32,332 nt of DNA. It comes from a virus. Taxonomy: Duplodnaviria; Caudoviricetes. Location: the IMG/VR virus record IMGVR_UViG_3300005805_000282, positions 1 to 32,332 of that record. One strand, 5' to 3'. How positions within the stretch are numbered: position 1 is the stretch's first letter; each line of letters starts with the position of its first letter. The notes under the pieces were generated by a model. That model made no database searches. It was not told the origin of the DNA and worked only from the letters and a program-made list of their open reading frames with translations. Below are positions 7,051 through 32,041 of this stretch, piece by piece. The translations under genes and the position numbers were made by a program.

Positions 7051-7283
7051 TTCTTTTGCTATTGCTACCAATAGGCTTAATCATTTACTTAGTATATGAG
7101 TACTATGTAGTAAAGCGCACGCTTGATGAAAGTGCGAAGCGCATTGATGATAGTATTAGGAGAATGATAGATGGGGTAAAAACATTTTTTACAGTTAGCA
7201 TCATTGACAAGTTAGCGGCAAGTGATGAGTCGGATAGCGATGATGATGACACAGAAACCGACTCCGATGAATCCTTATTCTAA
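7047..7283 (+). CDS. Membrane-anchored protein with acidic tail
   Basis: N-terminal TM and D/E/S-rich C-terminus; ATGA overlap. Confidence 0.55.
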   Translation: MILLLLLPIGLIIYLVYEYYVVKRTLDESAKRIDDSIRRMIDGVKTFFTVSIIDKLAASDESDSDDDDTETDSDESLF

Positions 7284-8313
7284 AGACAATGCAGCAGTGT
7301 ATGAGTTCATACGTGCGTACAATGGCTCAATCAATCAAGCTGTAGCAGCAGCTATTGCGCATTTTAACCTGCCACATAAAGAGCACAGCCTTCGTCGGAT
7401 GTATTTGCGATGGAAGCAAATCAATCGAATAGAGCGCACAACTATCGTAAAGAATCACAATGGTGCATTACACAAATTAGACGACAAAATTGAAGGCTTT
7501 AATACGCTTATAGACGAGCTATTGCCACAGCATTCGAACCCACTTGACCTGCCGCCTTCACAGGAGAGCGATTACAAGCCATTCAAGCTACCGATTAATC
7601 ATAACAATATCCTTTTGCTGTCGGATATTCACGTACCATTCCACAATATCCAGGCATTAACGCTGGCTCTTAAGTATGGAATGGAGAATGATGTGAATAC
7701 CATACTGCTGAATGGCGATATCATAGACTTCTATGCTATTAGTCGCTTTGAGAAAGACCCTCGTAAACGTAACTTCGGGCATGAGGTCTTAATGACTAGG
7801 CAGTTCTTGACCACATTACGCAAGCTATTCCCGAATGCTGCGATATATTACAAGTGTGGAAATCACGATGTGCGTTATGACCATTACATCATGCGCAATG
7901 CACCTGATTTATTAGGTATGGATGAGTTCAGCTTTGAGAGTTTGATGCACTTGGATAAGCTCAACATCACGTTCATTCCGGATAAGCAAGTAATCCATGC
8001 AGGTAACTTGACAATCTTGCATGGGCACGAACTAGGTGCATCGGTATTCAGCCCGGTCAACATCGCTCGTGGTTTGTTCCTGCGTGCAAAAGCCAATGCG
8101 CTGTGCGGTCATCACCATCAAGCAAGTGAACATACAGAGCCTAACATCAATGGTAAGATTACTACTTGTTGGAGTGTGGCTTGTCTGTGCGAACTGCATC
8201 CTGATTACCTACCAATAAACAAACACCATCATGGATTTGCTCACGTACGTGTGATGGACTCAGGTGATTTTGAGGTAAGCAATTACCGAATAGTCAACGG
8301 CAAGATACGTTAA
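7267..8313 (+). CDS. Calcineurin-like metallophosphoesterase (start uncertain; ORF open from 7222)
   Basis: DIH, GDIID, GNHD, HGHE and GHHH motifs. Confidence 0.88.
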   Translation: MNPYSKDNAAVYEFIRAYNGSINQAVAAAIAHFNLPHKEHSLRRMYLRWKQINRIERTTIVKNHNGALHKLDDKIEGFNTLIDELLPQHSNPLDLPPSQESDYKPFKLPINHNNILLLSDIHVPFHNIQALTLALKYGMENDVNTILLNGDIIDFYAISRFEKDPRKRNFGHEVLMTRQFLTTLRKLFPNAAIYYKCGNHDVRYDHYIMRNAPDLLGMDEFSFESLMHLDKLNITFIPDKQVIHAGNLTILHGHELGASVFSPVNIARGLFLRAKANALCGHHHQASEHTEPNINGKITTCWSVACLCELHPDYLPINKHHHGFAHVRVMDSGDFEVSNYRIVNGKIR

Positions 8314-8340
8314 ACAAAAAGCCCCCACGTTTGGAGGCTC
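8312..8340 (-). terminator. Intrinsic terminator on - strand
   Basis: GAGCCTCC-AAACGT-GGGGGCTT-TTTGTTT. Confidence 0.8.
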
Positions 8341-8372
8341 CTTGCAATAACATATCACACAAAATGAATAGA
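8312..8372 (-). ncRNA. Candidate ~60-nt G/U-rich sRNA
   Basis: TATATTTG promoter element at 8377-8384 (-), then a G/U-rich tract, then a GC hairpin with U-tail. No ORF on this strand. Confidence 0.45.
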
Positions 8373-8388
8373 GCTGCAAATATAACTC

Positions 8389-8634
8389 ATGGCACGTAAA
8401 AAGCAACCGAAAGTAATACATCGCAAGTTAGGTCGTGAGCGTGCGGATGGCTTATACTGTGACAACATCATTGAGATAGATCCAACGCTACCACCTATGC
8501 GTTATCTAATCGTGCTTGTTCACGAGTATCTTCACCACATTCAACCGGAGTGGAGTGAGGAGAAGGTTGATGCGGAAGGTGAGGCACTGGGTAGGTTCCT
8601 TTGGCAGCAAGGCTATCGCAAGGTGCAGCAATGA
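8389..8634 (+). CDS. Small zincin-like (HExxH) protein
   Basis: 'IEIDPTL...VLVHEYLH...SEEKV'. Confidence 0.7.
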   Translation: MARKKQPKVIHRKLGRERADGLYCDNIIEIDPTLPPMRYLIVLVHEYLHHIQPEWSEEKVDAEGEALGRFLWQQGYRKVQQ

Positions 8635-8660
8635 TACGCCCGCTGCTAAGAATTAAGAAT

Positions 8661-8873
8661 CTATTCATCTAACAAGCCTTCAGTTATTTCACCACATCTA
8701 TCATAAAGCTCTGCAATCTTTTCGCTTACTTCATGGCTATGCTCACCATACTTCCATTCATGGCGCATCATGTGCATTATCTCTTTGAGTGCATCGCGAT
8801 ACCGGGCAGCGTTCAGCGTGTACTCGTATGCGTATGCATCTTTAGGTAAATTAAAGGTTAGTGTTGCTTTCAT
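8661..8873 (-). CDS. Hypothetical phage protein (MKATLTFNLP...)
   Basis: ORF with likely start at the internal Met; N-terminus is common in small phage proteins. Confidence 0.7.
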   Translation of the reverse strand: MKATLTFNLPKDAYAYEYTLNAARYRDALKEIMHMMRHEWKYGEHSHEVSEKIAELYDRCGEITEGLLDE

Positions 8874-9087
8874 TTCTTTTTGCTTTGCGTTTCTTGATTG
8901 TTGTCGGTTGTATGGTGTATGCACCATAAATGTTTTGGTCTACTTTGATTCCGATGTCTTTAAATAAGCGCAGATAACGGTATGCTGTGCGTTCGGTTAC
9001 CATGAGTTCTTTAGCTATAACATGTACTGGCATATCACGTTGCTGCATTTGAACCATAAGAGTTAACACGCGTCTAATCTTGTCCAT
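8851..9087 (-). CDS. Stand-alone winged HTH protein
   Basis: 'IAKELMVTERTAYRYLRLFKDIG', like the HTH_11 N-terminus of WYL regulators. Confidence 0.75.
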   Translation of the reverse strand: MDKIRRVLTLMVQMQQRDMPVHVIAKELMVTERTAYRYLRLFKDIGIKVDQNIYGAYTIQPTTIKKRKAKRNESNTNL

Positions 9088-9301
9088 CTTCTATTTGTGT
9101 TTTGTTTGGTAATCCTGCTTTGCAATCTGTGTAGCCTTCATTATAAGCATCATGGATGTGATTCATTTCAATCATTTGCGCTGACTTCAAAAAGAAGTTA
9201 TCCATCTCTGCCCACGATATGTTTATCGATGCGCCTTGAAAGCGTTTGCGTAAAGCTTTGTTCAGCCTACGTATGGCTGTTTCTTTTTTAACTGTTGTCA
9301 T
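9074..9301 (-). CDS. Hypothetical protein ('IxDAY' family)
   Basis: ORF with likely start MTTVKK; motif HIHDAYNEG. Confidence 0.6.
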   Translation of the reverse strand: MTTVKKETAIRRLNKALRKRFQGASINISWAEMDNFFLKSAQMIEMNHIHDAYNEGYTDCKAGLPNKTQIEDGQD

Positions 9302-9389
9302 CTTGTTTTTTAATTTGGTTGTATAGATCACGTAAAGCCAGTGCAGCTATCCATAGCGGTACGGCAATAATGAGTGCGGCTATTATCAT
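9288..9389 (-). CDS. Small membrane peptide, 33 aa (MIIAALIIAVPLW...)
   Basis: Translated by hand; overlaps both neighbours. Confidence 0.55.
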   Translation of the reverse strand: MIIAALIIAVPLWIAALALRDLYNQIKKQDDNS

Positions 9390-9559
9390 AGGTACTTTGT
9401 TTCTTTAGTTATGGTAAATAATTCGCGGTTAACTGATTTGATTTTGTGATGCAGATTGTTTTTAATGTACATAGTCTTCGCATCGACAAATGCGTTAAGC
9501 AATCTTAGTCGCTCCTCTTTGAGCTGCTCTAGCGTCCAGTTCTTTCTGTGTTTTCCCAT
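9386..9559 (-). CDS. Hypothetical protein, 57 aa (MGKHRKNWTLEQ...)
   Basis: Translated by hand; ATGA overlap with the next gene. Confidence 0.6.
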   Translation of the reverse strand: MGKHRKNWTLEQLKEERLRLLNAFVDAKTMYIKNNLHHKIKSVNRELFTITKETKYL

Positions 9560-9800
9560 TCAATCTTAGTATTTCATTTTTGACATGATGGTAGTAAGCT
9601 TTAACGCTGTAGTATTCACCGGTGCCATCGAAGTCTTGCATGATGTCGGTAGGTGCATTAATCAATGCTTCATCTACGCAATAGAGTGCGCAGTTGATTG
9701 CTTTCATATGCACTACTGCTAGTTGGCCTTGTTGCTCTTCGCCTTCGACTATATCAAAATAATTCGAGTACAGTTGCCATGCTTTGTCTTTTGCCTTCAT
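9495..9800 (-). CDS. Hypothetical phage protein
   Basis: 'KAKDKAWQL...CALYCVDE...YYHHVKNEI' pattern. Confidence 0.7.
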   Translation of the reverse strand: MKAKDKAWQLYSNYFDIVEGEEQQGQLAVVHMKAINCALYCVDEALINAPTDIMQDFDGTGEYYSVKAYYHHVKNEILRLNGKTQKELDARAAQRGATKIA

Positions 9801-9894
9801 TGTTTAGCTTATTGATTAGTTCAATTACCTGCTCTTTGTTGTAGTAGTGCTGCGTTGAATTGCGCACATGGTCTTTGAGTTGTTCGGTGGTCAT
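9754..9894 (-). CDS. Hypothetical protein, 46 aa (MTTEQLKDHV...)
   Basis: Translated by hand; ATGA overlap. Confidence 0.55.
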   Translation of the reverse strand: MTTEQLKDHVRNSTQHYYNKEQVIELINKLNNEGKRQSMATVLELF

Positions 9895-10121
9895 GGCTTA
9901 AAGGTTATTTCAAAATAAACATCTCCACATGGTGCGTTGTAATGATAACCATCTATTTTCATACCCGCATTGTATGCATCTTCAATTTGTTTGCGAAAGA
10001 TTTTCTTCGCTGCTTTCAATGCTGTAAATGCATCACTGCCTTCAATGGTATAGGAACCAATATAACCAGTGTCACCATAGATTTCTTTGAATAAAAATTC
10101 AACTGCTGATTGTTCTTTCAT
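9891..10121 (-). CDS. Hypothetical protein ('QTAVEWL/QIxDAY' family)
   Basis: QSAVEFL...KQIEDAYNAG. Confidence 0.7.
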   Translation of the reverse strand: MKEQSAVEFLFKEIYGDTGYIGSYTIEGSDAFTALKAAKKIFRKQIEDAYNAGMKIDGYHYNAPCGDVYFEITFKP

Positions 10122-10336
10122 AGTGCTTTACATTTAGGTGCTTTATATGTAGTTAGTTTTGGCAAGGTTGGATGATAGTAAATAACATTTTCTTCTCCTC
10201 TTAAATAGCTTAATCGTAATCTCATAAGCCCACACCTTTCACATATTGATTTGGCTTCATTATTTTCATGTTCCAAATCATGTGCGTTCATCCATTTGTG
10301 CCTCATACGTTCAAAGTATTTAAGTATTCTCTCCAC
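10118..10336 (-). CDS. Small Cys/His protein
   Basis: HKW..CERCG..C; start uncertain. Confidence 0.55.
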   Translation of the reverse strand: MERILKYFERMRHKWMNAHDLEHENNEAKSICERCGLMRLRLSYLRGEENVIYYHPTLPKLTTYKAPKCKAL

Positions 10337-11067
10337 ATCGGAACACGCTCTTGAAGCTTTGCGATAGCTGCTTCATCAAACTCAACTACCTTTTCATGGA
10401 TGCGCTCCTGCACTGGTATATCATAGCACCATTCGCTAAGGTCGCTTTCAAGGTTAGCGTGTGGGTTTTCTGCTATGTATGTAGGCATATCGTATATCAT
10501 GTTCTTTTCAATGCGCTGTGCCTTCTTAATAAATTCCTCGTTGCCTTGTGGATCAATAAGATTCATGCGTAAGGATAGTCGATACTTCTCACTATCTATC
10601 ATCTGTGATGGTGCGTTAACTAGCACAAAGCAAAACGTAGCTTTGGGCGCACCTGTTAGCCAGCAGTATGCTTGACCTTGCCAATAGTAATCCTTGCTAA
10701 TATCATTTAGCTTAGCATCGATGAAGGTGTGAATGTCCCAACTGCTTTTGATATCAGGTACATTGACAACTGCACCACCATCTTTGATAAGCAAATCAGG
10801 TGTGCCGGTTATGAAATCGTTTTGAAAGTTAACCTCGTTTTTGAATACAATAGCATTGCGTTCCCTGCGCCACATATCAATGGCATCATTCTCAACTGCT
10901 ACACCTTTCTCAATGTACTTGTTGCTGATGTCTTTGTAACGCTTGTACTTCTGCTGTATATAGATTTCAAGTAATGCGCTCTTGGTGGTTTCGGATAGGC
11001 CGCTTTTGGTGCGTGCATCGGTCATTAGCTTACCCAGCTGCGATGCTCTAAATTTTACTTGTTCCAT
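10303..11067 (-). CDS. YqaJ/lambda-type exonuclease
   Basis: FRAS, 'KG...E', GTPD, DIKSSW and YYWQ..AY motifs. Confidence 0.85.
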   Translation of the reverse strand: MEQVKFRASQLGKLMTDARTKSGLSETTKSALLEIYIQQKYKRYKDISNKYIEKGVAVENDAIDMWRRERNAIVFKNEVNFQNDFITGTPDLLIKDGGAVVNVPDIKSSWDIHTFIDAKLNDISKDYYWQGQAYCWLTGAPKATFCFVLVNAPSQMIDSEKYRLSLRMNLIDPQGNEEFIKKAQRIEKNMIYDMPTYIAENPHANLESDLSEWCYDIPVQERIHEKVVEFDEAAIAKLQERVPMWREYLNTLNV

Positions 11068-11095
11068 TGTGTGTGTTATTGTGGTGGCTAATATA

Positions 11096-11770
11096 TTACT
11101 TTACCAAAGACAATTGGTGCTTTTTAACAGCTATTAACTCTTGCACCTTTTCAAGATGTTCATCCGGGCATGCTTGCATAATGATATCACAATCATCTGC
11201 GCTCTGTGCCTTATCGATTAGTTCACTCAAGTACTGCAAGTCTTTGTTGACTGGTGCAAGCTTACCCTTTAGGTTGAAAGGCTTGTAGATGTCAATGTTA
11301 TTGCGGTTAAGGTCGCGGCCAAATAACTTACCTAATGATACAGCAGCATTCTTTATGCATTCTGTTTTCAGCTTTGGGAATGCCAGGTCAAGTGCATTCG
11401 ACTTTTTGTTTTCTGCATTCAATGCCCATCGGTTACGCTCTGTGCCTTGAATATTCTGCGGTGCTTTGTCAACCATAATAACAATGGATGCTGCACCACT
11501 TCTGCGTATCTCATAGCCGCTTATCGGATGGATCACTATCAGGTCAATACTGCCTACTACTTCATTCGCCATGCGCTCCCACTTAAAGTTCTCGGTGCGC
11601 CAATGCCCAAAGAACATTTCGTCTAGTGTAGTTTCGACATGGCTAATAACGAGCGTACGTGCCTTGCCATCTGGTGTGGATTCGATACCGACTTGGTCAG
11701 GCGATGCGTTAAGCATTTGCTGAAACTTTTGCAACGCTTCGAGGTTGTCTTTGTGAAAAGAATTGTTCAT
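11096..11770 (-). CDS. Single-strand annealing recombinase (Rad52/Sak-like)
   Basis: Next to the exonuclease; 'VETTLDEMFFGHW' and 'IKNAAVSLGKLFGRDLNR'. Confidence 0.65.
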   Translation of the reverse strand: MNNSFHKDNLEALQKFQQMLNASPDQVGIESTPDGKARTLVISHVETTLDEMFFGHWRTENFKWERMANEVVGSIDLIVIHPISGYEIRRSGAASIVIMVDKAPQNIQGTERNRWALNAENKKSNALDLAFPKLKTECIKNAAVSLGKLFGRDLNRNNIDIYKPFNLKGKLAPVNKDLQYLSELIDKAQSADDCDIIMQACPDEHLEKVQELIAVKKHQLSLVK

Positions 11771-11790
11771 GTGATTATTGATTTAATAGG

Positions 11791-11892
11791 TTAATACTTG
11801 GCTAAACAATCGTTTAATTCTTGACAATAGCTAAGAACAGCTAGAATGATTACTGCCCAAACGATGTACTTGATTACTTTACTTGCTTTCAT
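11791..11892 (-). CDS. Small membrane peptide, 33 aa (MKASKVIKYIVWAV...)
   Basis: Translated by hand; CAATAAC leader. Confidence 0.55.
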   Translation of the reverse strand: MKASKVIKYIVWAVIILAVLSYCQELNDCLAKY

Positions 11893-11946
11893 GTTATTGT
11901 GTTTTAAATTTTAGATGCGCGTTGGTGAGTCGCGCCCCTCGTTTGA

Positions 11947-12126
11947 TTAAAGTGATTTGAAAAATTCTGCTACTTTACCAATGGTTGTATTGTTAATCAA
12001 ATCTTGAATATTCTCATATGAGTTCTTGCGTGTAGTGCCAAGATAGTTAACAGTAGTTATAACGCAGTCAGTATAAATGTTTACTACTACTTCAAATCCT
12101 TTTGATACTTCAATTGTGTGTGTCAT
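11947..12126 (-). CDS. Hypothetical early protein, 59 aa (MTHTIEVSKG...)
   Basis: Translated by hand; first ORF after the promoter at 12157. Confidence 0.65.
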   Translation of the reverse strand: MTHTIEVSKGFEVVVNIYTDCVITTVNYLGTTRKNSYENIQDLINNTTIGKVAEFFKSL

Positions 12127-12156
12127 TGCTTTGTGTTTTTGTTGTTATTGATAGGC

Positions 12157-12164
12157 CAAAGATA
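12157..12164 (-). promoter_or_regulatory. Bacteroidota sigma-70 -7 element TATCTTTG
   Basis: Matches TAnnTTTG; intergenic, upstream of the early ORFs. Confidence 0.7.
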
Positions 12165-12274
12165 TGGTAACTTTTTACACACACAATAGGCAGTATGCAA
12201 TTTTAACAATTTTTAACAAATGCAGTATTGATAATCAGTAAGTTAGATTGAATCGGTTACAGATTGTAACCAGC

Positions 12275-13573
12275 TCAGGCCCACGAATAGCTGCCGTAAT
12301 TGGGGAATAGTTCAAAGTACATACGCATCATGATGGCATCAGCGTAGTCAGGAGACTTGCCATGCATCCGGGCAATCTCCTCTTTCGATATAACCGACAG
12401 CTTTGCGTCTGCATCCGGTTGCCTTCTGCGTATCATATCTAGTTCTTGTATAATCACATCGCGAAAAGCGTTGACTTTAAAGATAACTTTGTTCTGCTCT
12501 ATCAGTTCGGCTAACTTGAAGTAGCATTCTGCTTTTTGATTAGTAAACTTATCTGCTTGCTTAGCACGCCCACCATTAAGAAAGCCCCTGCAACGAAGAT
12601 GGTCAACCGCTCCCCCTCCTACCCCATCTTCATCACAGATCACATTGCTCAATTTGATGTGATGCCTATCGCATAGTTGGCGAATGATGCTAACTACTGT
12701 AGTGATGGGTTGCTTTCGCAGCTCGTGTATCTCGATTAAATGCAAGCCTTGCCACACGCATATCACACTGCGGTCCTTTCCTAGTCGTGCTATATCCGCA
12801 CTAATATATTTTTCTCCTTTGCTTTCTTCTTCCCGGAAGCAGCGCACTAAGTCATCATACTGATAAAGATTATCTACGCTTTCATCGTATTCCCAATCGC
12901 CATACAACAGCCTTCGCCTATCTATTTCGGGCAATCGCTCGAGAGTTTCGATATAGGTTTCAGGTAGGTGTGGGTTATCGGTAGGAAGCGATGGTATGAA
13001 TGCAAGATGTTGTGCTAGATTATCCATCTTGAATGGTGCGTAAAACTCATTATAGAGCCATCCTTTGGACGGATTGCAAGTGAGCAGCATCTTCGGTGGC
13101 AAATCATATTCGCGTAACTTAAAACGGATACGAGACTGCAGTATATCTATTGCACGTTTGCTCACTTGTGCTGCCTCGTCAACGTAGGCATCTGTTAATT
13201 CTAACCCGCCTAAGCTATGGAACTCCGCATCCGATGGATATGCAAATAGGTCTTTAAGGATTATTTCACTTCCGTTGTTGAAAGTAATTACGTGCGTTTG
13301 GTTATTGATGGTGTAGTGTTCATTAGGTGCAAGACCTAACATACCTGCTACCTCAAAGAATGTTTTCAGCGTAGTTTTTTTTAACGTATCAAGTTTACTT
13401 CTACCTATCAACCCTCTCGTGCCTGGATACTTAAACCTGCGGCTTATTTGCCATGCACATCCGATGAAAGATTTTGATCCACCTGCAGCTCCTCCGAAGA
13501 GCACTACACGTGCCGGGTGTGAATTACCCAGCACACGCAGTGCTTCCTTTTGTTTCGGTAGATACTCAATCAT
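12275..13573 (-). CDS. terL: Terminase large subunit
   Basis: Walker A GGAAGGSKS, Walker B YVDEA, TCNP, DNPHL, and nuclease motifs DIARLGKD and SPDYADA. Confidence 0.93.
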   Translation of the reverse strand: MIEYLPKQKEALRVLGNSHPARVVLFGGAAGGSKSFIGCAWQISRRFKYPGTRGLIGRSKLDTLKKTTLKTFFEVAGMLGLAPNEHYTINNQTHVITFNNGSEIILKDLFAYPSDAEFHSLGGLELTDAYVDEAAQVSKRAIDILQSRIRFKLREYDLPPKMLLTCNPSKGWLYNEFYAPFKMDNLAQHLAFIPSLPTDNPHLPETYIETLERLPEIDRRRLLYGDWEYDESVDNLYQYDDLVRCFREEESKGEKYISADIARLGKDRSVICVWQGLHLIEIHELRKQPITTVVSIIRQLCDRHHIKLSNVICDEDGVGGGAVDHLRCRGFLNGGRAKQADKFTNQKAECYFKLAELIEQNKVIFKVNAFRDVIIQELDMIRRRQPDADAKLSVISKEEIARMHGKSPDYADAIMMRMYFELFPNYGSYSWA

Positions 13574-13812
13574 TAGAACGGCAAATCATTACCACGTTGT
13601 GGTTCTTCACTTGCAGCAGATTCTTTGATTTCACTGATAGTCCATGAAATAAATTTAACTCCGTTCTTTCCTTCTTTAGTCCAACCTGCAATCCTTATAG
13701 GTTTGCCCGATTCATTAGCACCTGCACCTGACCAATCAGGTTGATTTGGTGAAGTCTTTTTGTCGTTTTTGAATAGCACTCCAGTGCCAGGTTTGTGTGT
13801 GTAATTACTCAT
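13573..13812 (-). CDS. Small ssDNA-binding protein (putative)
   Basis: 'GVLFKNDKK..QPDWSG..IAGW' and a C-terminal DLPF tail. Confidence 0.7.
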   Translation of the reverse strand: MSNYTHKPGTGVLFKNDKKTSPNQPDWSGAGANESGKPIRIAGWTKEGKNGVKFISWTISEIKESAASEEPQRGNDLPF

Positions 13813-13824
13813 TGTATTTGGTTT

Positions 13825-14007
13825 TTAATTATTAATGATTCCAATATCTTCTGTCATCAATGCTATTGATTTTGTGCCATCGAGTGCGGTTGTTTCAGCT
13901 ATGGTGAAGTCTTCTTGTATCACGTTGTGACCATCAATGAAACCAATATAGACTGGCATATCATCCGGGTACTTTGCAAGGTAATCCCACAGCTCACCTA
14001 TTGTCAT
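13825..14007 (-). CDS. Hypothetical protein (MTIGEL..YPDDMPV)
   Basis: Common small phage protein N-terminus. Confidence 0.7.
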   Translation of the reverse strand: MTIGELWDYLAKYPDDMPVYIGFIDGHNVIQEDFTIAETTALDGTKSIALMTEDIGIINN

Positions 14008-14165
14008 AGCTTGTATTCATCTTTGTCAGTTAGCAAATGTAGTTGCTCAAAGATAATGCGCATATCCATATTATCCTGCATAGAAGGGCGCATACTTCGT
14101 TTGCTTGTTAACACAAAGAGCTGACGCAGCAGTTTGTTTTCTTCGGCTATGTCGTAGTGCTTCAT
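14004..14165 (-). CDS. Hypothetical protein, 53 aa (MKHYDIAEEN...)
   Basis: Translated by hand; ATGA overlaps at both ends. Confidence 0.65.
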   Translation of the reverse strand: MKHYDIAEENKLLRQLFVLTSKRSMRPSMQDNMDMRIIFEQLHLLTDKDEYKL

Positions 14166-14407
14166 TTGTCAGCTCCGTATGTTTCGTTGTAGTATTGTTG
14201 AGCCGCCCTTTTTAACACGCGACGATTAGTATCATCATCCTCACCATCTATGTACGCATCAACAATCTGCTCCTTCTCCATTGCTAATGCTTCAATAAAT
14301 AGTTCATCGAACTTTTCAACGTGCAAATCTTTGCTGCGCCATTCTTTAGTTTGCATCAAATGTAGAAGATGATAGTGCAACCACTCTACTGCTGTTTGCT
14401 TTTTCAT
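14162..14407 (-). CDS. Hypothetical protein ('QTAVEWL/EKEQIxDAY' family)
   Basis: Likely start MKKQTAVEWL. Confidence 0.75.
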   Translation of the reverse strand: MKKQTAVEWLHYHLLHLMQTKEWRSKDLHVEKFDELFIEALAMEKEQIVDAYIDGEDDDTNRRVLKRAAQQYYNETYGADK

Positions 14408-14408
14408 A

Positions 14409-15092
14409 TCAATACTCTTTTTGATTGTCAATCTCTTCCATGTAACGCTGCTTTCGGTATTCGGTAAACTGATAAGGCTTATTTTGATAAACCTTAAACC
14501 ATTTGCTTTCCTTCCATTCGGGTAACGCATCGTATTCTTCCATGATTTGCTTTTCAAATGGTGAGTTACTCACACGCTTCGCTTCCGGCTTGGGTGCTTC
14601 TTGCAGCTTCAATCGGTCAACTGTCTCATGCAATGCTTGGTTGATTTGAGGATGATTGAAGATTTCATACAGATTGCCACCTCTTTGCTCTTGGCTACGC
14701 ATTGCAGTTATGTGAGCGTTGCGCTCTTGTTCAAACTTATGTACCCATTCATTCAGTATCGACAAGTCTAGTCGATTGTAAATTGCCCCGTACAAACCTG
14801 CCGCGCCACGATCTAAACAAAGCTGAATATCTTCAAGTGAGTATATCCAGTGATGCTCGACAAAGTGTTCAGCTGCAAATTTGATTTGTTGATTGTTCAT
14901 GTTCTTATCAATGTTCAGCATTGCACAGCACCGGGCAATGAGCATTGATATTTTGAACTTAGTTTCGTTTCTGTCAATGGCACGAAGTGAACTAATCTTA
15001 CTACATTTCACGCTCTCGTGCAAAGTCAGCTGCGATTTGGGCTGCCACGTTTTGATAGTGTGCAACGTTGTCAAACTTTGGTTTTGTTCCAT
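14409..15092 (-). CDS. Replication accessory protein (helicase-loader-like position)
   Basis: Directly follows and overlaps the initiator. Function is inferred from synteny only. Confidence 0.5.
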   Translation of the reverse strand: MEQNQSLTTLHTIKTWQPKSQLTLHESVKCSKISSLRAIDRNETKFKISMLIARCCAMLNIDKNMNNQQIKFAAEHFVEHHWIYSLEDIQLCLDRGAAGLYGAIYNRLDLSILNEWVHKFEQERNAHITAMRSQEQRGGNLYEIFNHPQINQALHETVDRLKLQEAPKPEAKRVSNSPFEKQIMEEYDALPEWKESKWFKVYQNKPYQFTEYRKQRYMEEIDNQKEY

Positions 15093-15753
15093 AGGTATTT
15101 GATTTTTGATTTTGGTCAAATTTAGAATTATTTACCATCCAATTACGTGCTGAAGCTTTCCAATCTTTCATCGGATTGCGGCCCTGCTTCCATCCATTGG
15201 CTTCGTAGTAGTTAAAAAATTTCGCGGCCTCGGTGTTTATTTTTTCATCAGTCCACTGCATGTGCTTTAGAACTGAATACTCACCCATAAAATTATAAAC
15301 TTCATTTTCGGTTGGGCGTGTAAACGCTATACTATTGTTTCTTTGTTTCTTTGTTTCTTGGTTTCTTTGTTTATCTATAGGGGCACTGCTGTGTTCAATG
15401 CCGTTGCTATGCTGTATCAATGCCGTATCCAATGCCGTATGCAGTGCTGTGGCTTTTTTGCTACGGCATATTGATATTATTGTACTGCTATACTGGTTCT
15501 TAGATTCGCTTATGATTTGAATAAAATTCCATTTGGCTAAATCACTAAGTGCATCCAAGTAGGTGCGCTTGTTACCAATGTGCAAACCTTCCATTGTCGC
15601 ATTGGTAGGTATGCCAAACTGCTCCTTCCATCCAAGCCGGTTGTTTAGTTCAATAATCCACATGAACAAAGCAGTGTGCTGGCATTTTACCTCCGAATGT
15701 TCAAAGGCAAAATCAAACCACTTGCGCGACAAATCATATCCGTTCGTTTTCAT
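15001..15753 (-). CDS. Replication initiator / replisome organiser
   Basis: N-terminal wHTH-like region, repeat-rich linker, C-terminal 'FFNYYEANGW..G..MKDWKA..RNW'. Confidence 0.75.
   Translation of the reverse strand: MKTNGYDLSRKWFDFAFEHSEVKCQHTALFMWIIELNNRLGWKEQFGIPTNATMEGLHIGNKRTYLDALSDLAKWNFIQIISESKNQYSSTIISICRSKKATALHTALDTALIQHSNGIEHSSAPIDKQRNQETKKQRNNSIAFTRPTENEVYNFMGEYSVLKHMQWTDEKINTEAAKFFNYYEANGWKQGRNPMKDWKASARNWMVNNSKFDQNQKSNTYGTKPKFDNVAHYQNVAAQIAADFAREREM
15336..15453. repeat. Putative origin: four TGTTTCTT octamers plus ~6 degenerate AATGCCGT-core iterons
   Basis: Tandem repeats inside the initiator linker. Confidence 0.6.
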
Positions 15754-15970
15754 GCTGTACTTTTAAATGGTCATGGTATGAATTAAGCAGCGCATAAAGT
15801 TTTTCGACTTGCTTTGCATCTAATGTAATAGATACGGCACTCATCTTATCATCATAATAGCGTATCAAATGAATGAATAGCTTATCATCTTCTGTGATAT
15901 GAGAAAGCAAACAGCGTTGTTCATCACCCCAAGGATTAAAGAAAGAAATACCAGTCTTGTTTTGTGACAT
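15734..15970 (-). CDS. Hypothetical protein
   Basis: 78 aa ORF overlapping the initiator start. Confidence 0.65.
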   Translation of the reverse strand: MSQNKTGISFFNPWGDEQRCLLSHITEDDKLFIHLIRYYDDKMSAVSITLDAKQVEKLYALLNSYHDHLKVQHENERI

Positions 15971-15974
15971 AAAA

Positions 15975-16074
15975 CTAAATACCCACCACTACACGTAAAG
16001 GCTACTCCGCGCACGAAAGTGCTATGGCATTACGGCAGTGATGGGATTTAAAATGTTTTTCATTACGAAGTAGC
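15975..16074 (-). promoter_or_regulatory. Structured 5' leader with uORF (16063-16022) and alternative pairing
   Basis: Long nested hairpin and a 9-bp alternative helix; G-U wobbles favour the - strand. Confidence 0.6.
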
Positions 16075-16078
16075 GTTG

Positions 16079-16109
16079 CAAATATACACAACCCTTTGAC
16101 AATTCCAAA
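16079..16109 (-). promoter_or_regulatory. Bacteroidota promoter TTTG-N19-TATATTTG
   Basis: Full -33/-7 consensus with canonical spacing. Confidence 0.8.
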
Positions 16110-16874
16110 TTAGAATCGCAGATTTACTTTATCTCTACGCTTGTAATTGTAGATTTCTTCAATCAATGAAATCATTTGATTGACATGCACACATGACTGC
16201 AAAGCTGATGGCTGAATTTTTACTTTTTGTAAAAGTTCCGTAATAGAAAAATCAGGATTATTGCTAAGTTTCATCAATGCAAATACAAATGAACGGCTTT
16301 TGAATCCATTAAAGTATGGCTCAAAAAGATACAGCATATCCATAAATTTTTCCGCATCTCTAACTTGTTTCTCACTAACTTTTAAAGTTCCATGTTTGAA
16401 AAATTCAAAAGGAGCTCCGGCCTTCATTCCCCCTTGACCAGTAGTGTTGCCTATCAAAATACTTGCGCCAATGCTTATGTTTAAATTATACTTACGCAAA
16501 AATTCACTAAGCGTTATGTAATCTTCATAACCAAGATCGCAGTAAGCCTGCAAATAATCTTGAGAACTCCAATTACTGCTATTAGCATTTAGAATTTGAA
16601 CCTGTAATAAACTATATCCAGGTATCATTGTGTAATGCAATGGCAATCCTAAATCACGAATGGCATGAAAGCGATGTTGTCCGTCAATAATTTCATACTT
16701 TTCATTTACCACAATTACGGTAAATAAATAGTGTTCCTGCATACTTTTCTTCAATCGGTTAATGTGCAGTAGATTTACATTTCGATTGCCATCAATGCTT
16801 TTAAACATTGAGTAATCAGTTGTCGTGTGAACTTGGTACGTAGGTACACTTAGTTCTTTCTTAGATAATAACAT
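16110..16874 (-). CDS. ParB/Srx-like N-terminal domain protein
   Basis: 'GNRNVN..HI..L..SM' and IIDGQHR. Confidence 0.75.
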   Translation of the reverse strand: MLLSKKELSVPTYQVHTTTDYSMFKSIDGNRNVNLLHINRLKKSMQEHYLFTVIVVNEKYEIIDGQHRFHAIRDLGLPLHYTMIPGYSLLQVQILNANSSNWSSQDYLQAYCDLGYEDYITLSEFLRKYNLNISIGASILIGNTTGQGGMKAGAPFEFFKHGTLKVSEKQVRDAEKFMDMLYLFEPYFNGFKSRSFVFALMKLSNNPDFSITELLQKVKIQPSALQSCVHVNQMISLIEEIYNYKRRDKVNLRF

Positions 16875-16924
16875 AAAATAAAATTGGTTTTAATTTGCCT
16901 ACTCTGTAAGGTTTTCGGCTACCC

Positions 16925-17287
16925 CTATACTTCCAAATAATTTTTAATGGTCAATGTGAATTCATCAAATGACCTGCACACTTTCACGCAATATCCTGCA
17001 TTGATTAGCTGTGCGTGAACGATTTTTTGCATATCGGAAAGCTTTCCCTTCTCGGTTTTCATCTCAATGAATAGCGCATGGTATGGGCCTGAGGGTATGC
17101 ATATCATTAAGTCAGGCATACCAGGCATGGCTCCTTCGGCTTTAAGGATGTTCCAGCGTTTGGCTCTTTGCACCGGAGTGCCACCGATAAAAACTCCATT
17201 AGGGAAGGAAGCGATTAATGTGCGCGGAAACGAATAACGAAACCACTCAACACATCGCTGCTGCATTTTGCTTTCATCATGCTTCAT
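16925..17287 (-). CDS. VRR-NUC domain nuclease (resolvase-like)
   Basis: E..Q, PNG, 'EG..PGMPDL', 'FIEMK..KGKLS..Q'. Confidence 0.88.
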   Translation of the reverse strand: MKHDESKMQQRCVEWFRYSFPRTLIASFPNGVFIGGTPVQRAKRWNILKAEGAMPGMPDLMICIPSGPYHALFIEMKTEKGKLSDMQKIVHAQLINAGYCVKVCRSFDEFTLTIKNYLEV

Positions 17288-17855
17288 TAGCTACAAGATT
17301 AGAGATTGCATACCAAAACTTACCTACATATTGTTCATCACCTTCAACCTCTATAATAGGTAGGTGCCTTTCTAGTTGGTTGAATTCCCAATGGCTCATG
17401 CTGTTTACCTCATAATCGCAGCCTAATGCAATAGGACAGTATGCAATTCTGTGCCGGTTTACAGGCGTATCAAACTTCACCAGGTAGTTAGTGCTATGGT
17501 TAATAGTTACCATGTAATAGCTGCGCAGCTCGTTAACTATTTTGCGCTTTACGATGTAATAGGTAGCAGGCCCAATGCGCCTGATGTTATGTACATCGTA
17601 TTCGCTTTGCAATGATTCATCAAAAGACTCAAGCATCTCCATTTCATCAAGATGCTGCTCCATTGCTCGGTAGCGTTTCTCCTTTTGATCTACGTCAAAC
17701 ACCATCTTGCACCAATTCAGCATCGTGTGCGTATTAATGTTTAATGCTTTTGCTATCGAATGATAGGGCATAGAGTTGATATGCTTAGTAATAAAGAGCA
17801 CATCTTCGCGTGATGGTACTTTTTGGTTCCGTTTTAGACTGATTCCTTTATTCAT
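17277..17855 (-). CDS. Hypothetical protein with N-terminal HTH-like segment
   Basis: 'IAKALNINTHTMLNW'. Confidence 0.6.
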   Translation of the reverse strand: MNKGISLKRNQKVPSREDVLFITKHINSMPYHSIAKALNINTHTMLNWCKMVFDVDQKEKRYRAMEQHLDEMEMLESFDESLQSEYDVHNIRRIGPATYYIVKRKIVNELRSYYMVTINHSTNYLVKFDTPVNRHRIAYCPIALGCDYEVNSMSHWEFNQLERHLPIIEVEGDEQYVGKFWYAISNLVANEA

Positions 17856-18081
17856 CGCCTTCGTGTTTAATGGTTATGTGTTCGACTAGTTCAGTTACAG
17901 GCATGTCTAATGCCTTTGCAAGGTTAACAAGTTGGCTCACCTTAATGCTTCCACTATCGTGCATCCAGTTGTATAGCGTCTTCCGTACGATGGGTGTATT
18001 GCTACGCTGCATCGCTCGAAGTAGGGCAAGCTTACTGCCTACCCTACTTTCAATTAATAGATTCAATTTACTATTCTTCAT
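17848..18081 (-). CDS. XRE/Cro-like HTH regulator
   Basis: 'RKTLYNW...QLVNLAKALDMPVTEL'. Confidence 0.75.
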   Translation of the reverse strand: MKNSKLNLLIESRVGSKLALLRAMQRSNTPIVRKTLYNWMHDSGSIKVSQLVNLAKALDMPVTELVEHITIKHEGDE

Positions 18082-18410
18082 TCTATCGGTTTTAGATGGT
18101 GATTTAATGCGTAGTACAAATCACGATGAGCCTTTGTGAATTGCTCTTCGAATTCATCGCTAGTGATGCGAAGCATATTGTCTTGATCCATTTGCTTCTT
18201 GAGATGTTCAGCAGCTTCCGTATCATCTTTGTACGAGCGTGTAGATACACTCCAATTACCATTCAAATCGTAGATGGTAATTAGTGTACGCTCTTCTGTC
18301 ATGCAGAAGAATGTTTTAAGATACCTGCCTGTGCTGAAGAAGAATGGCAGTTCAATGTTGTTGGTTTCAACTGTTACCGGTACACGGTGTTTGATTTCTA
18401 AAGTGTTCAT
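18078..18410 (-). CDS. Hypothetical protein
   Basis: ORF with CAATAAC leader. Confidence 0.7.
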   Translation of the reverse strand: MNTLEIKHRVPVTVETNNIELPFFFSTGRYLKTFFCMTEERTLITIYDLNGNWSVSTRSYKDDTEAAEHLKKQMDQDNMLRITSDEFEEQFTKAHRDLYYALNHHLKPIE

Positions 18411-18428
18411 GTTATTGAGGGTTTTAAA

Positions 18429-18680
18429 TTAATAGCAATTATCGCAAGAGCATTTCACGTATGACTTATCACGCAGCTCGTCAATGGCTTCTTCTATAAA
18501 TACTTTCCAATCTTGTTCGGCTTCGCTTTCATCATTGGCAGCATTCCACTGATGCATCAAGTCAATGCATCCAGCTTTTACTTCATCATAGTAATTGAAT
18601 GCCCAATCGCAGTTAATGCATGGTACATACCCATCGTTATTAGGTGAATCGGGGTAGTTATTAATTAGCGTTGTTATCAT
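18429..18680 (-). CDS. Acidic Cys-rich hypothetical protein
   Basis: First ORF after the leftward promoter; CxxC and CxCxxC. Confidence 0.65.
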   Translation of the reverse strand: MITTLINNYPDSPNNDGYVPCINCDWAFNYYDEVKAGCIDLMHQWNAANDESEAEQDWKVFIEEAIDELRDKSYVKCSCDNCY

Positions 18681-18692
18681 AGTGTTTTATGT

Positions 18693-18715
18693 TATCTTTG
18701 TTGTGTGCAAATATA
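18693..18715. promoter_or_regulatory. Face-to-face TAnnTTTG elements (+18693-18700, -18708-18715)
   Basis: Two consensus matches at the strand-switch point. Confidence 0.6.
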
Positions 18716-19709: not shown

Positions 19710-20035
19710 AGATACAACTAGCACTCACTAAGATATCATTTGACTATGATGGTACTCTATCAACTACTAAGGGCAAAGAGCTGGCTGCGGAGAAAATTGC
19801 GACAGGTCATGAAGTGTGGATAATCACAGCACGTACACGCGAAGACAATAACAACGCAGTATATACCACAGCTGAACGCTTAGGCATACCACGCAAGCGC
19901 ATCAAGTTCACTAATGGACAAGACAAGTGGAAGTTCATGCAGCGATATGATATCGATATTCACTATGACAACAATTTAGATCAAGTCAACCTGATAAACG
20001 AACGCACCTTAACACGTGCAATCCTATTTACTTAA
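19706..20035 (+). CDS. Minimal HAD-superfamily protein
   Basis: FDYDGTL, ITAR, K and HYDNN motifs. Confidence 0.75.
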   Translation: MKIQLALTKISFDYDGTLSTTKGKELAAEKIATGHEVWIITARTREDNNNAVYTTAERLGIPRKRIKFTNGQDKWKFMQRYDIDIHYDNNLDQVNLINERTLTRAILFT

Positions 20036-20039
20036 ACAT

Positions 20040-20180
20040 ATGCCATTACCAACACCTACCTCCGAAGAAACAAAGAATGAATTTGTAGCACGTTGCATGA
20101 GCGATGCTAAGATGCAAAGTGAATATCCAGATGCACAGCAACGCATTGCGGTGTGCATCGTCCAATATGAGCAGAAGTAA
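20040..20180 (+). CDS. Small phage protein, 46 aa (MPLPTP..EFVARCM..QRIAVC)
   Basis: Translated by hand; fills the gap between neighbouring genes. Confidence 0.75.
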   Translation: MPLPTPTSEETKNEFVARCMSDAKMQSEYPDAQQRIAVCIVQYEQK

Positions 20181-20204: not shown

Positions 20205-20474
20205 ATGCCATTTGAAAAAGGACAATCGGGCAATCCTAATGGTAGGCCACAAGGCGCAGTAAGCGAAAAGACCAAAATGTGGAATGAGTTAGGCGAATGG
20301 TTCACGCAGCAAGGTGCGGCTAAGTGTATGCGCATTATGAACGAGATGGAAGATGAAGAGTACATCAAACACTACACTGCGCTGCTCGAATACTTCAAGC
20401 CCAAACAAGCTAGAGTAACTCACGCTGGTGATGAAAAAGCACCTGTAGTTATCCAGGTGCATTCAGATTTGTAA
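20205..20474 (+). CDS. terS: Terminase small subunit (putative)
   Basis: MPFEKGQSGNPNGRPQG N-terminus and 'LEYFKPK'. Confidence 0.65.
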   Translation: MPFEKGQSGNPNGRPQGAVSEKTKMWNELGEWFTQQGAAKCMRIMNEMEDEEYIKHYTALLEYFKPKQARVTHAGDEKAPVVIQVHSDL

Positions 20475-20498
20475 CAAAAAGAAACCAAAAACTACAAT
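20470..20498 (+). promoter_or_regulatory. Putative late promoter TGTAAC-N17-TACAAT
   Basis: Resembles the motif at 4-31; heads the tail operon. Confidence 0.5.
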
Positions 20499-20511
20499 AA
20501 TAACAGAGGCA

Positions 20512-29178: not shown

Positions 29179-31355
29179 TGGCACAACCGATTGTTCAAAC
29201 ATTTATCATTGATACTACCGAAAGTGAGCAAAATCTTAAAGACTTAAATGTTCAAATAAATGCGACAAGCACTGCCATTGATAGTAGTGCGCAGTCATTT
29301 CAAAATGTAGCCGCTGCTGAAGAATCAGTTGGTACATCGACTAAATCACTGAAGGCACAGCTGCGTGATTTACAAGCGCAGTTGGCAAATACAGAACCTG
29401 ATAGTGCAAAGTATCGTGAACTTGCGGCTGCGGCTGGAGATTTAAAAGACAAGATAGGTGATGCTGCAGAAGCAGTAGGCACACAGGCAGGTGGTGCGTT
29501 TGAGCGTGTTGGTGGATCACTAGGATTAGTCACATCGCGTATTTCAAATCTAGATTTTGAAGGTGCGGCTGAAGGGGCAAAACTCCTTGCACAAAACATT
29601 ACCGAAATCAAGCCGGGTGATATTGCCAAGGGCATCAAAGGTATAGGCAGTGCATTTGCTTCAGTTGGTAAAGCCTTACTCACTAATCCAATATTCTTAA
29701 TAGGTGCAGCCATAGCAGCGGCTATCGTGTATAGCAAAGAGTTGTTGAGTTTAGTCGATGGTGTAAGTAGTGCTGAAGAAGAGGCTTTAAATAAGCAAAA
29801 AGAACGTGCTTCACTTGCCAAAGAGCAGGTAGATATCATAGGACAGCAAGAAGAATCGTTAAAACGTCAAGGCAAAAGTGAAGAGGAAATACTTAAACTT
29901 AAAGTAGATGCGCTGAATGCTGCCATCCTTGAACAGCAGATAGTAGTTGAGACAAGCAAAACTCAGGCACAAGCGCAGATAGCAGCAGCCGAACGTAACT
30001 ATAAATACCTTAAAGGTTTTTTGGATTTTGTTACGCTACCACAGCGCAAGATTGCTGAGTTCTTTTTTAATTTCTACAATGGAGCAGTTGATTTACTTAA
30101 CAAGTTAGGATTAGGATTAGAAAAAGTAGATGTTACTCAAATAACTGCAGGCTTTGATGCTGTCAATGATACCATTGCTAAAGCACTATTTGACCCTGAG
30201 CAAACAAAAAAAGAAGGTGAAAAGGTTATTAAAGAAAGTGAAGCAACACTTCGTCAATTAACCAACCAGCGTGATGGTTTGCTGAATCAACAAGATGCAA
30301 AAGACAAAGCTAGGAGAGATAAAAATAAGCAAGATGATAAGGAAGCAAACGACAAAAAACTTGCTGATGAAAAAAAGTTAAATGAAGAAATTGCAGCACT
30401 TAAAGAACAACAATATCAAGAATCATTAAGTGCGGAGGAAAAAGAATTAAGAGCAACATCACTCAAATATCAAAAGTTGCGCGCTGAAGCAGGAGATAAT
30501 GCTGAACAACTAAAGCAATTACAAATACTTGAAGCGCAAGAATTACAAGATATTAGTAATAAATATTTTGATGATCGTTTAGCCGCTGAAGCTAAGAATG
30601 AAGAAGAAAGATTGCGTTTAAAAAATGAGCAGGAAGCATTACGTTACGATTTAACTACATCCGCACAGCAAAAAGAAATCGATGCAATAACGGCTGCTGG
30701 TCAAGCAAAGTTATTAGTTGCTCAAGGCGATGCTGAATTAATTAAAATTATTAATGCTCAAACAGAAGCAGAGATACAAGCTGTTAAAGACAAGTATGCA
30801 GACGAAGACAAAGCAAAACAAGAAAAAAAAGCTGCGGATGAAAAAGCATTGTTGCAAGGTAAATTAGATTTTGCAAAAGGCATACTAGGTAATATTGCAT
30901 CAATTACTGAATCATATTCTAAAGGAGATGAAGCAAGAGCAAAGAAAGCATTTAAAGTACAGAAAGCTATTAGTATTGCTCAAGCTACTATTGATACTTA
31001 CGAAGGTGCTCAAGCAGCTTTTGTTAGTACTCAAAAAAATCCTGTATCGGTATTATTTCCTGCCGCACCGTATATCGCTGCCGGTGCTGCGGTTGCTGCT
31101 GGTATTGCGAACGTAGCAGCAATTACAAAGCAGCAGTTTCAAGGTAGCACCACACCATCAACAAATGAAACACCACCACCTGCACTCGATGGTGGCGGTG
31201 GTGGATCACAACCTGCACAATTCAATCCACTTGCTGCGCAGTTCTTACAGAACAGACCAGAGCAAGTAACGCCACGCGCATTTGTTCTTGCAGGTGATGT
31301 GGCAAGTCAACAAGAAGTGCGACAAAAAGTAGAAGACCTATCACGTATCGGATAA
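29178..31355 (+). CDS. Tape measure protein
   Basis: Ala/Glu/Lys-rich coiled coil with 'LLTNPIFLI' and hydrophobic segments. Confidence 0.8.
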   Translation: MAQPIVQTFIIDTTESEQNLKDLNVQINATSTAIDSSAQSFQNVAAAEESVGTSTKSLKAQLRDLQAQLANTEPDSAKYRELAAAAGDLKDKIGDAAEAVGTQAGGAFERVGGSLGLVTSRISNLDFEGAAEGAKLLAQNITEIKPGDIAKGIKGIGSAFASVGKALLTNPIFLIGAAIAAAIVYSKELLSLVDGVSSAEEEALNKQKERASLAKEQVDIIGQQEESLKRQGKSEEEILKLKVDALNAAILEQQIVVETSKTQAQAQIAAAERNYKYLKGFLDFVTLPQRKIAEFFFNFYNGAVDLLNKLGLGLEKVDVTQITAGFDAVNDTIAKALFDPEQTKKEGEKVIKESEATLRQLTNQRDGLLNQQDAKDKARRDKNKQDDKEANDKKLADEKKLNEEIAALKEQQYQESLSAEEKELRATSLKYQKLRAEAGDNAEQLKQLQILEAQELQDISNKYFDDRLAAEAKNEEERLRLKNEQEALRYDLTTSAQQKEIDAITAAGQAKLLVAQGDAELIKIINAQTEAEIQAVKDKYADEDKAKQEKKAADEKALLQGKLDFAKGILGNIASITESYSKGDEARAKKAFKVQKAISIAQATIDTYEGAQAAFVSTQKNPVSVLFPAAPYIAAGAAVAAGIANVAAITKQQFQGSTTPSTNETPPPALDGGGGGSQPAQFNPLAAQFLQNRPEQVTPRAFVLAGDVASQQEVRQKVEDLSRIG

Positions 31356-31965: not shown

Positions 31966-31988
31966 TACTTAGTGTTTTGGTTTAGTGT

Positions 31989-32024
31989 AAAAAAGAAAGG
32001 CCCAAACGTGGGCCTTCTTTTTTT
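31989..32024. terminator. Bidirectional intrinsic terminator
   Basis: A-run, GGCCC-AAACGT-GGGCC, T-run, between convergent genes. Confidence 0.88.
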
Positions 32025-32041
32025 AACCTCAAATCAAATAA

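Follow-up and report, generated by a model that had tools for sequence, protein, structure and literature searches.

A conserved minus-strand promoter, G/U tract and terminator in phages of likely Bacteroidota hosts: a probable small RNA gene with predicted pairing to early-gene leaders

The phage and the minus-strand unit

The window, that is, the whole stretch of DNA analysed here, is a 32.3-kb virus record (32,332 nucleotides) rated 98% complete by CheckV. It encodes a portal, a terminase, a lysin, a metallophosphoesterase, a lambda-type exonuclease (exo), an SSB, a ParB-like protein and a sigma-like protein. The terminase matches that of Flavobacterium phage 11b best (48%), followed by that of phi10:1, a Cellulophaga phage (43%), and the gene leaders in the window are A-rich and without a Shine-Dalgarno sequence; on account of this kinship and these leaders a Bacteroidota host is likely. 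A leftward gene block occupies 8661-18680 and the structural genes run rightward. No integrase was found among the scanned proteins, which comprised those of the window and 22 of 47 unassigned long ORFs of its relatives, and the scanned proteins give no sign of lysogeny. The window ends resemble a repeat of about 280 bp, with some differences between the copies. The scaffold gene is preceded by a motif of the TGTAAC-N12-TCTA type (4-30 and 32223-32250, +), which looks alike in the 15 records compared; it may be the late promoter of the phage sigma-like protein, its pattern being ECF-like. Some relatives carry additional genes (L093, 3737-5803; L112, 874-1644): a subtilase of about 685 aa inserted beside the ribbon-helix-helix (RHH) gene in some, a TET-associated glycosyltransferase in one, and DNA methylases in the early arm of several.

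The element under study lies between two + strand genes, at the following positions:

7222..8313, + strand: metallophosphoesterase gene, its stop codon abutting the terminator U-run
8313..8372, - strand: predicted small RNA of about 60 nt, its start placed 4-5 nt past the box
8313..8345, - strand: intrinsic terminator hairpin and U-run, directional for the minus strand
8346..8372, - strand: G/U-rich tract of 27 nt, single-stranded in the fold prediction, the predicted seed
8364..8399, + strand: ORF of 11 codons, not conserved and judged incidental
8377..8384, - strand: TATATTTG, a -7 box of the Bacteroidota primary-sigma type, fitting the consensus TAHHTTTG
8389..8634, + strand: gene for an 81-aa HEXXH protein with weak metalloprotease similarity (phrog_87, E 0.008)
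8404..8406, - strand: TTG, a -33-like element 19 nt upstream of the -7 box and within the HEXXH coding sequence

On the minus strand, 8406-8377 reads TTG-N19-TATATTTG and is followed by the G/U tract and a U-tailed hairpin. The first-pass annotation had placed a consensus box at 8384-8377 and a strong terminator after the tract; both were confirmed, and the TTG is an addition to them. The refined promoter consensus of Flavobacterium is TAHHTTTG, with transcription starting 4-5 nt behind the box (PMC6847099), and because the box fits it the RNA is predicted to run from 8372/8371 to about 8313. Sites of the form TAnnTTTG number 30 in the window, and four of them (18693+, 16086-, 12164- and 8384-) have a TTG at 19 nt. 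Two such boxes face each other at 18693-18715 (18715 minus, 18693 plus), with the first leftward gene on one side and the sigma-like gene 18770 on the other; their predicted starts nearly overlap, and they are a possible switch. A sigma-70 promoter and terminator scan did not pick up the unit at 8313-8384, the promoter type being wrong for that scan.

The 63 nt of the minus strand fold at -21.8 kcal/mol (z -4.1; none of 200 shuffles was as good), against -10.4 kcal/mol for the + strand of the same 63 nt. The hairpin proper spans 8345-8314, with the U-run after it. As the element sits between two + strand genes, a minus-strand terminator serves neither neighbour. An attenuator was considered and rejected, there being no minus-strand gene downstream. 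The tract reads UUCAUUUUGUGUGAUAUGUUAUUG at 8368-8345, and the seed as a whole (8346..8372) contains CAU (anti-AUG) and UGUUAUUG. It had been claimed that no ORF lies between box and terminator, which holds for complete ORFs within the predicted RNA; an AUG at 8353 on the minus strand does open a frame that runs beyond the terminator, and a minus-strand ORF of 53 aa (8421-8260) covers the whole unit. A small peptide encoded on the RNA was rejected: of 38 distinct units from the first scan, 22 have an AUG in their single-stranded part, and its position varies.

The HEXXH protein model (pLDDT 81) has three strands and two helices and gave no match in the PDB at E<=0.001. Its Atlas neighbours are annotated as SprT-like (14% of members) or Peptidase_M78 (13%), and its relatives also occur in GC-rich unrelated phages without the unit.

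Conservation among related phages

Two scans were made. The first used the HEXXH protein as query; 185 relatives were found, the best 80 were kept and 4 of these had too little upstream DNA. Box, tract and terminator were present in 75 of the 76 contigs with 130 nt upstream, the sole exception (L003) having the box only. The second set held 35 new close-kin contigs, one of them too short, and was scored on the box and a terminator-loop motif, both of which were found in 34/34. Combined, the complete unit is present in 109 of 110 close-kin phage contigs, which bears out the conservation of the promoter-tract-terminator unit that the first-pass annotation had named as a check.

Across the 110 loci the box varies at its two free positions (TA, TC, CC or AC, never G) and at its last base. 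It lies 2-6 nt from the HEXXH ATG among the relatives, and an antisense box stands at this distance before the ATG in 45 of 50 distinct HEXXH leaders, compared with 0-2 for each of 17 other genes. The spacing of the -33 TTG varies among relatives and is not conserved. Of 42 distinct units, 41 have a hairpin that is more stable on the minus strand than on the plus strand. The MAFFT alignment yielded no pairs with RNAalifold, the terminators being offset by a column, so that the family model built from it (R1) is sequence-only; in a second model (R2) the stem was set by hand, and alignment A3 (49 matches from 59 sources, none of them the window) was fitted to R2. In the structure-fitted alignment 88% of cells pair, with a covariation score of 0.31 against 0.13 when shuffled. 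Of 41 distinct units, 40 retain a core of TGTTAT or GATTG; the 5' part differs between units in both length and sequence and often forms its own hairpin after the box. The core of the family is UUGUUUUUGUUAUU(U)GAUUGA, and the window copy is short against it, the GAUUGA half being missing. The window unit, which is among the training sequences, matches the family model at 51 bits (E 1.3e-6). The unit is therefore real as a conserved feature of the minus strand, and to judge from its sequence it is probably transcribed.

Strong matches to the family model are found once per record in 16 records. Weaker second tracts were found in the window at 2156-2231 (28 bits) and 31950-32060 (24 bits). The former region (2159-2231, +) is the 3' UTR of a tail-tube-like gene and holds a near copy of the family core ahead of a terminator; its G/U tract is present in 18/18 records with the gene and also in distant kin without the main unit, and its best partner is gene 18410 (z -1.9), its pairing with the exo leader being weak (mean z -1.3). 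The latter is a two-way terminator between the prohead protease gene (+) and a 44-aa NikA-like RHH gene (32176-32042, -), with G/U tracts on both sides. Its minus side scores 34.4 bits with the Rfam model for FopS (threshold 56) and looks complementary here to the leader of the putative ssDNA-annealing gene (rec) described below. The idea that the FopS-like match at 31986-32052 is a paralogue of the unit was set aside, since this match forms half of a terminator that works both ways and 3 of 15 records lack its tract. In G003, G005 and G007 the + side of this terminator has its own TAHHTTTG box and is a possible second RNA unit. In bacterial genomes there were 11 exact pattern matches, none above 25.2 bits with R2, and in the two that were inspected (Chitinophagaceae MAGs) the terminator was absent. 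No annotated phage gave a DNA match to 8100-8700.

The relation of the unit to the HEXXH gene bears on two alternative readings. Three contigs without the HEXXH gene retain the unit, in minimal form, and in L277 the last leftward gene terminates just ahead of the box. In four distant kin (HEXXH identity 64-65%) the phosphoesterase gene abuts the HEXXH gene with no unit between, and in the near-complete distant kin G036 and G037 no homologous unit was found anywhere (best E 0.04-0.6). As the unit is kept without the HEXXH gene in the former and absent with it in the latter, it is not the HEXXH leader. A + strand ATG occurs within 75 nt before the HEXXH gene in 20 of 45 distinct sequences, at 16-43 nt, and these scattered ATGs together with the HEXXH-less units remove the upstream-ORF reading and make a purely cis-antisense role unlikely.

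In one alternative the tract matters on the + strand, as an A/C-rich leader of the 11-codon ORF or as a standby site for the HEXXH gene, with the box arising by chance. The first-pass annotation itself had named the ORF leader, setting the ORF start at 8363 where it is in fact 8364. The tract does look like a strong Bacteroidota leader and an ATG does follow in the window, but it is missing in 25 of the 45 sequences, the terminator works in the minus direction, hardly any other gene has such a box in front of it, and the unit persists where no + strand gene follows. The contigs without the HEXXH gene already refute most of this reading, which retains a next to negligible probability.

A cis-antisense RNA like Sar of phage P22, controlling translation of the HEXXH protein as a possible antirepressor-type protease, has more to recommend it. 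The promoter overlaps the HEXXH start, the late message is perfectly complementary to the predicted RNA up to about -17 of the HEXXH AUG, this duplex is the strongest in the window (-25 kcal/mol), and the protein has weak ImmA/IrrE-type similarity. Against it, the RNA stops short of the -13 to -3 determinants of the HEXXH gene, no integrase was seen in the scanned proteins, and unit and gene occur apart from each other in the seven contigs described above. Cis antisense also has no need of a conserved core, and a kept core beside a freely varying 5' part is more than a purely cis-antisense RNA would need. We regard such a role as the main function as improbable; a side effect of the RNA on HEXXH translation is possible.

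Predicted pairing with early-gene leaders

The tract had been described as complementary to the leaders of the leftward early genes. The shared motif is narrower than that: it concentrates on genes that stand just behind a host-type promoter box. The predicted targets, all on the minus strand, are:

11065..11081, - strand: leader and AUG of the exonuclease gene (11067-10303), the predicted main target from duplex and family tests
12113..12150, - strand: leader and first codons of a 59-aa accessory gene (12126-11947), behind the box at 12164
18678..18702, - strand: leader of gene 18680-18429, which opens the leftward arm, behind the box at 18715; a weaker predicted target
11768..11785, - strand: leader of gene 11770-11096 (rec), presumably an ssDNA-annealing protein, a label given from position only; a target at family level and weak here

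The exo leader reads CAAUAACACACACAAUG as had been claimed, and the gene sits behind its own relaxed box, TATATTAG (11095-11088). Duplex energies for 41 trans leaders were obtained with RNAduplex and cofold and compared with those of shuffled RNA. The leader of gene 12126 gave the top trans duplex (-18.4, p 0.010 uncorrected), followed by that of exo (-17.1, p 0.023 uncorrected) and then by 18680, 17855 and 18410, so that all of the top five are leftward; leftward against rightward leaders gave p 0.057. Duplexes as good as the top two are also formed by 0.8% and 1.5% of random 50-nt windows. With accessibility included, exo and 12126 lead again at about -15 (p 0.025, 40 shuffles). The exo cofold duplex partly uses bases upstream of the predicted start of exo, and the leader of gene 12126 is the second-best match to the family model in the window, in antisense (E 8.5e-4). 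The longest exact matches between RNA and leaders in the window are 8-9 nt, the rec leader has a z of -0.8, and no trans target in the window alone survives correction for 41 leaders. Taken alone, the predicted trans pairing in the window is borderline by RNAduplex and cofold. Elsewhere in the window, the ParB-like gene leader carries an Rfam DUF805b motif at 16896-16928 (-), with 42.8 bits and above the gathering score.

The family gives a clearer result. Of 35 related records searched, 26 were used together with the window; gene starts came from a custom caller and include some errors. The exo leader paired with its own RNA better than with shuffled RNA at a mean z of -2.9 (19 of 28 below -2, 27 records), and was followed by the orthologues of 18680, the first leftward gene (-2.4, 5/7 below -2), and 17855 (-2.0, 6/15), and by rec (-2.0, 10/27). 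The capsid (z +0.4) and scaffold (z +0.8) leaders pair no better than shuffles. When 66 distinct RNA/exo pairs were taken with the target trimmed to the predicted transcript, z was below -2 in 47 and below 0 in 64, and the duplex covered -14 to -2 in 77-98% and the AUG in 67-79% of pairs. Adenines at -13, -12, -6 and -3 promote initiation in Flavobacterium (PMC6847099), and the span of the exo duplex includes these positions. Exact matches of at least 9 nt were found to 78 leaders, against 33+/-6 in 30 shuffles. Among leftward genes the matched leaders are 29 of 115 where a promoter-like box stands in front and 35 of 388 elsewhere; among rightward genes they are 14 of 445. The relaxed box of exo itself is present in 48 of 53 distinct leaders. 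At family level, then, the predicted seed is complementary to start regions beyond what composition controls give; the pairing that had been expected to exceed shuffled controls does so across the family and is borderline in the window.

Co-variation of RNA and leaders was examined by comparing cognate with swapped pairs after removal of row and column effects, in counts that share ancestry. Subject to this shared ancestry, cognate pairs beat swapped ones for exo (p 1e-4, 20/25), rec (p 2e-4, 20/24) and the first leftward gene (p 0.003, 11/15); for 10 other gene groups cognate was no better than swapped. In the clade of G011, G013 and G014 the seed and the exo and rec leaders have all changed. 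For scaffold, the cognate RNA pairs worse than swapped RNAs (0/15 better) and the control tract behaves alike, a pattern that could be avoidance or an artefact.

The two-state test of seed against leader, made on pairs that are independent in the tree, gave a null result (p 1, with 5 starred pairs). In a tree-aware energy test with 14 independent pairs, about 10 favoured the cognate RNA for exo and 4 did not, at a median p of 0.006 over 30 pairings; exo is 1 of 15 genes tested, for which a Bonferroni correction gives about 0.09, and it had been named in advance. After the same correction for the tree, rec is not significant (p 0.20), and the 12 other genes with enough pairs gave p 0.08 or more, two controls being at 0.08-0.09. 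The control, a G/U tract that these phages carry in the 3' UTR of the tail gene, showed no co-variation with exo (p 0.54, 14 distinct); of 23 groups, rec and the RHH gene reached p 0.04-0.05 with it. There is thus moderate support for an apparent co-evolution of seed and leader, for exo only.

The hairpin probably doubles as the terminator of the leftward exonuclease operon, a point absent from the first-pass annotation. It leads to the main rival reading, in which the element is chiefly the 3' end of that operon: the hairpin terminates, the G/U tract acts in cis, by folding onto the exo leader within the message that carries both or by binding a stabilising RNA-binding protein, and the box adds little. 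What makes this the main rival is that the stretch from the last leftward gene (8927-8661) to the unit showed no U-tailed hairpin, and that G/U tracts precede further terminators, here those of the tail gene, the protease and the RHH gene, and in other phages, for example that of the phi10:1 capsid gene. In L235, L243 and L277 the last leftward gene has the unit itself as its 3' UTR, and the best and sole tree-robust target is the first gene of the same operon. On the other side, the box is present in every close-kin unit, in two upstream contexts (a HEXXH start or the stop of a leftward gene), many units have their own variable 5' hairpin directly after the box, and leaders outside the operon, such as that of the first leftward gene, pair well too. 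We judge a role chiefly as the operon's 3' end to be unlikely. A further hairpin with a U-run at 20431-20508 (-) stands behind the antisense of the gene-20512 leader and has no box upstream.

Proposed mechanism and comparison with known systems

The reading we favour, and consider rather more probable than not on these sequence comparisons, is that the predicted RNA of about 60 nt is driven by the host sigma factor, pairs in trans and represses exo together with further early genes that lie close behind a promoter. Transcription would presumably be by the primary sigma factor of the host, and the RNA would appear with the early messages and accumulate. It would cover the A/C-rich leader and AUG of exo and of other genes directly behind host-type promoters, and pairing would hide the AUG and the adenines at -13, -12, -6 and -3 that drive Shine-Dalgarno-free initiation, and ribosome loading would be blocked. 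Translation of the targets would then drop as the RNA builds up, and the capsid and scaffold leaders, which do not match, would remain open. The purpose would most likely be to slow the recombination nuclease and the early accessory genes after a delay; an unchecked exonuclease would be expected to erode DNA ends that are needed late. The late + strand message through the locus would be a perfect antisense and could soak up the RNA.

Units of similar layout occur in cultured phages. In six cultured Bacteroidota phages a box lies 15-55 nt upstream in 7 of 36 predicted terminators against 0.8 expected, an expectation taken from genome-wide rates that is an underestimate, as boxes cluster between genes. 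Three of the look-alike units, each with box, G/U tract and terminator, are:

about 19965-20045, - strand: phage phi10:1 (L287)
30326-30400, + strand: phage 11b (L212)
9826-9900, + strand: phage P12024L (L213)

Their G/U-rich spacers are 31-35 nt long (33 in the window), and the phi10:1 unit shares UAUUCAUUUUG with the window. Their leader matches are suggestive, with an enrichment that was not significant in 11b (8/65, p 0.135), P12024L (4/58, p 0.105) or phi10:1 (5/98, p 0.62). A wider proposal, possible in our view and still somewhat doubtful, is that Bacteroidota phages widely use a minimal anti-leader RNA gene, made up of a host-sigma box, a G/U strand of about 30 nt and a terminator, as a timer, in which C/A early leaders would be shut and A/U-rich structural leaders would escape, with seed and tag drifting together between clades as specificity groups like those of the c4 RNA of P1. 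Such groups, if real, could also silence a co-infecting relative.

The occlusion of a start region by a small RNA is already a well-known mechanism; post-transcriptional shutoff of early genes in phages of Shine-Dalgarno-free bacteria is poorly described. If the favoured reading is true, the unit would encode a trans-acting phage RNA that finds its targets by the Bacteroidota leader itself, the exonuclease first among them. It would offer a natural series of seed and leader variants, and similar units exist in phages that are in culture along with their hosts. Titles and abstracts of the open-licence literature gave no account of an RNA of this kind from phages of Bacteroidota. The nearest precedents are a FopS-like sequence noted in one phage and six uncharacterised non-coding RNAs of a Cellulophaga phage, phage non-coding RNAs being given in PMC5335546, Table S4.

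In Rfam the unit has chance-level matches only, and by these comparisons it is a member of no Rfam family, neither FopS nor c4. The Rfam c4 model gave no match for the window or the related units. The FopS model (RF04319, gathering score 56 bits) gave none on 8200-8500 (E<=10), nor on related loci, 13 of them searched at E<=5 and 12 at E<=10. GcvB (RF00022) scored 18 bits against a gathering score of 42 on three related units, with no match on the window.

GcvB had been cited as a known parallel to the unit. The two share a G/U-rich single strand predicted to pair with C/A-rich upstream elements of several mRNAs. GcvB, reportedly, sets a G/U seed against C/A-rich enhancers, is about 200 nt long and chromosomal, and depends on Hfq. 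Closer precedents are GibS and FopS, for the way of working, and the c4 RNA of P1 and P7, for the role.

Sar of P22 is said to overlap its own target locus. Sar and OOP of lambda share with the unit that they are short phage RNAs (68-77 nt) with their own promoter and antisense to a phage message, and OOP is classed as cis (PMC12197685). The unit differs in being decoupled from the neighbour that it overlaps and in having a core that matches distant leaders; the obligate linkage to the overlapped gene that marks Sar-type cis-antisense RNAs is not seen in it.

The c4 RNA of P1 and P7 is likewise a phage RNA that pairs near the ribosome binding site of a phage mRNA, and there, too, sequence differences between related phages track matched targets (PMC12197685). 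The pairing bases of c4 lie in loops of a structured RNA, whereas the seed of the unit is predicted to be a long single strand; and c4 controls an antirepressor in temperate enterobacterial phages (PMC12197685), whereas the predicted lead target of the unit is an exonuclease.

GibS and FopS of Bacteroides thetaiotaomicron (PMC7366714, PMC11697453, RF04319) have in common with the predicted RNA of the unit a single-stranded 5' seed, an intrinsic terminator and a similar length, and pairing at or over the start codon of genes at transcript 5' ends (PMC7366714, PMC11697453). FopS also shares a primary-sigma promoter and the G/U-rich look of its Rfam consensus, for the unit at sequence level only (PMC11697453), and a FopS sequence is reported in one Caudovirales phage (PMC11697453, Supplementary Fig. 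5a). This likeness suggests another reading, in which the RNA is directed at the host, as a FopS-like anti-leader on host mRNAs or as a decoy for an RbpB-type protein, and the match to phage early leaders is a by-product, RNA and leaders alike having followed the leader preferences of the host. By eye the family core resembles the FopS consensus; FopS hits the 5' ends of many host polycistrons, binds RbpB and occurs in a phage; and phage early leaders should, we infer, resemble strong host leaders. We nevertheless find a host-directed role distinctly unlikely, in view of the lack of a FopS match in Rfam and of a co-variation that is specific to exo and that other phage leaders and the control tract do not have. 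In the reading that we prefer, the unit would differ from GibS and FopS: it seems to be present as one main copy per phage, whereas FopS is multicopy, and its predicted targets are the phage's own early genes and not host glycan transporters.
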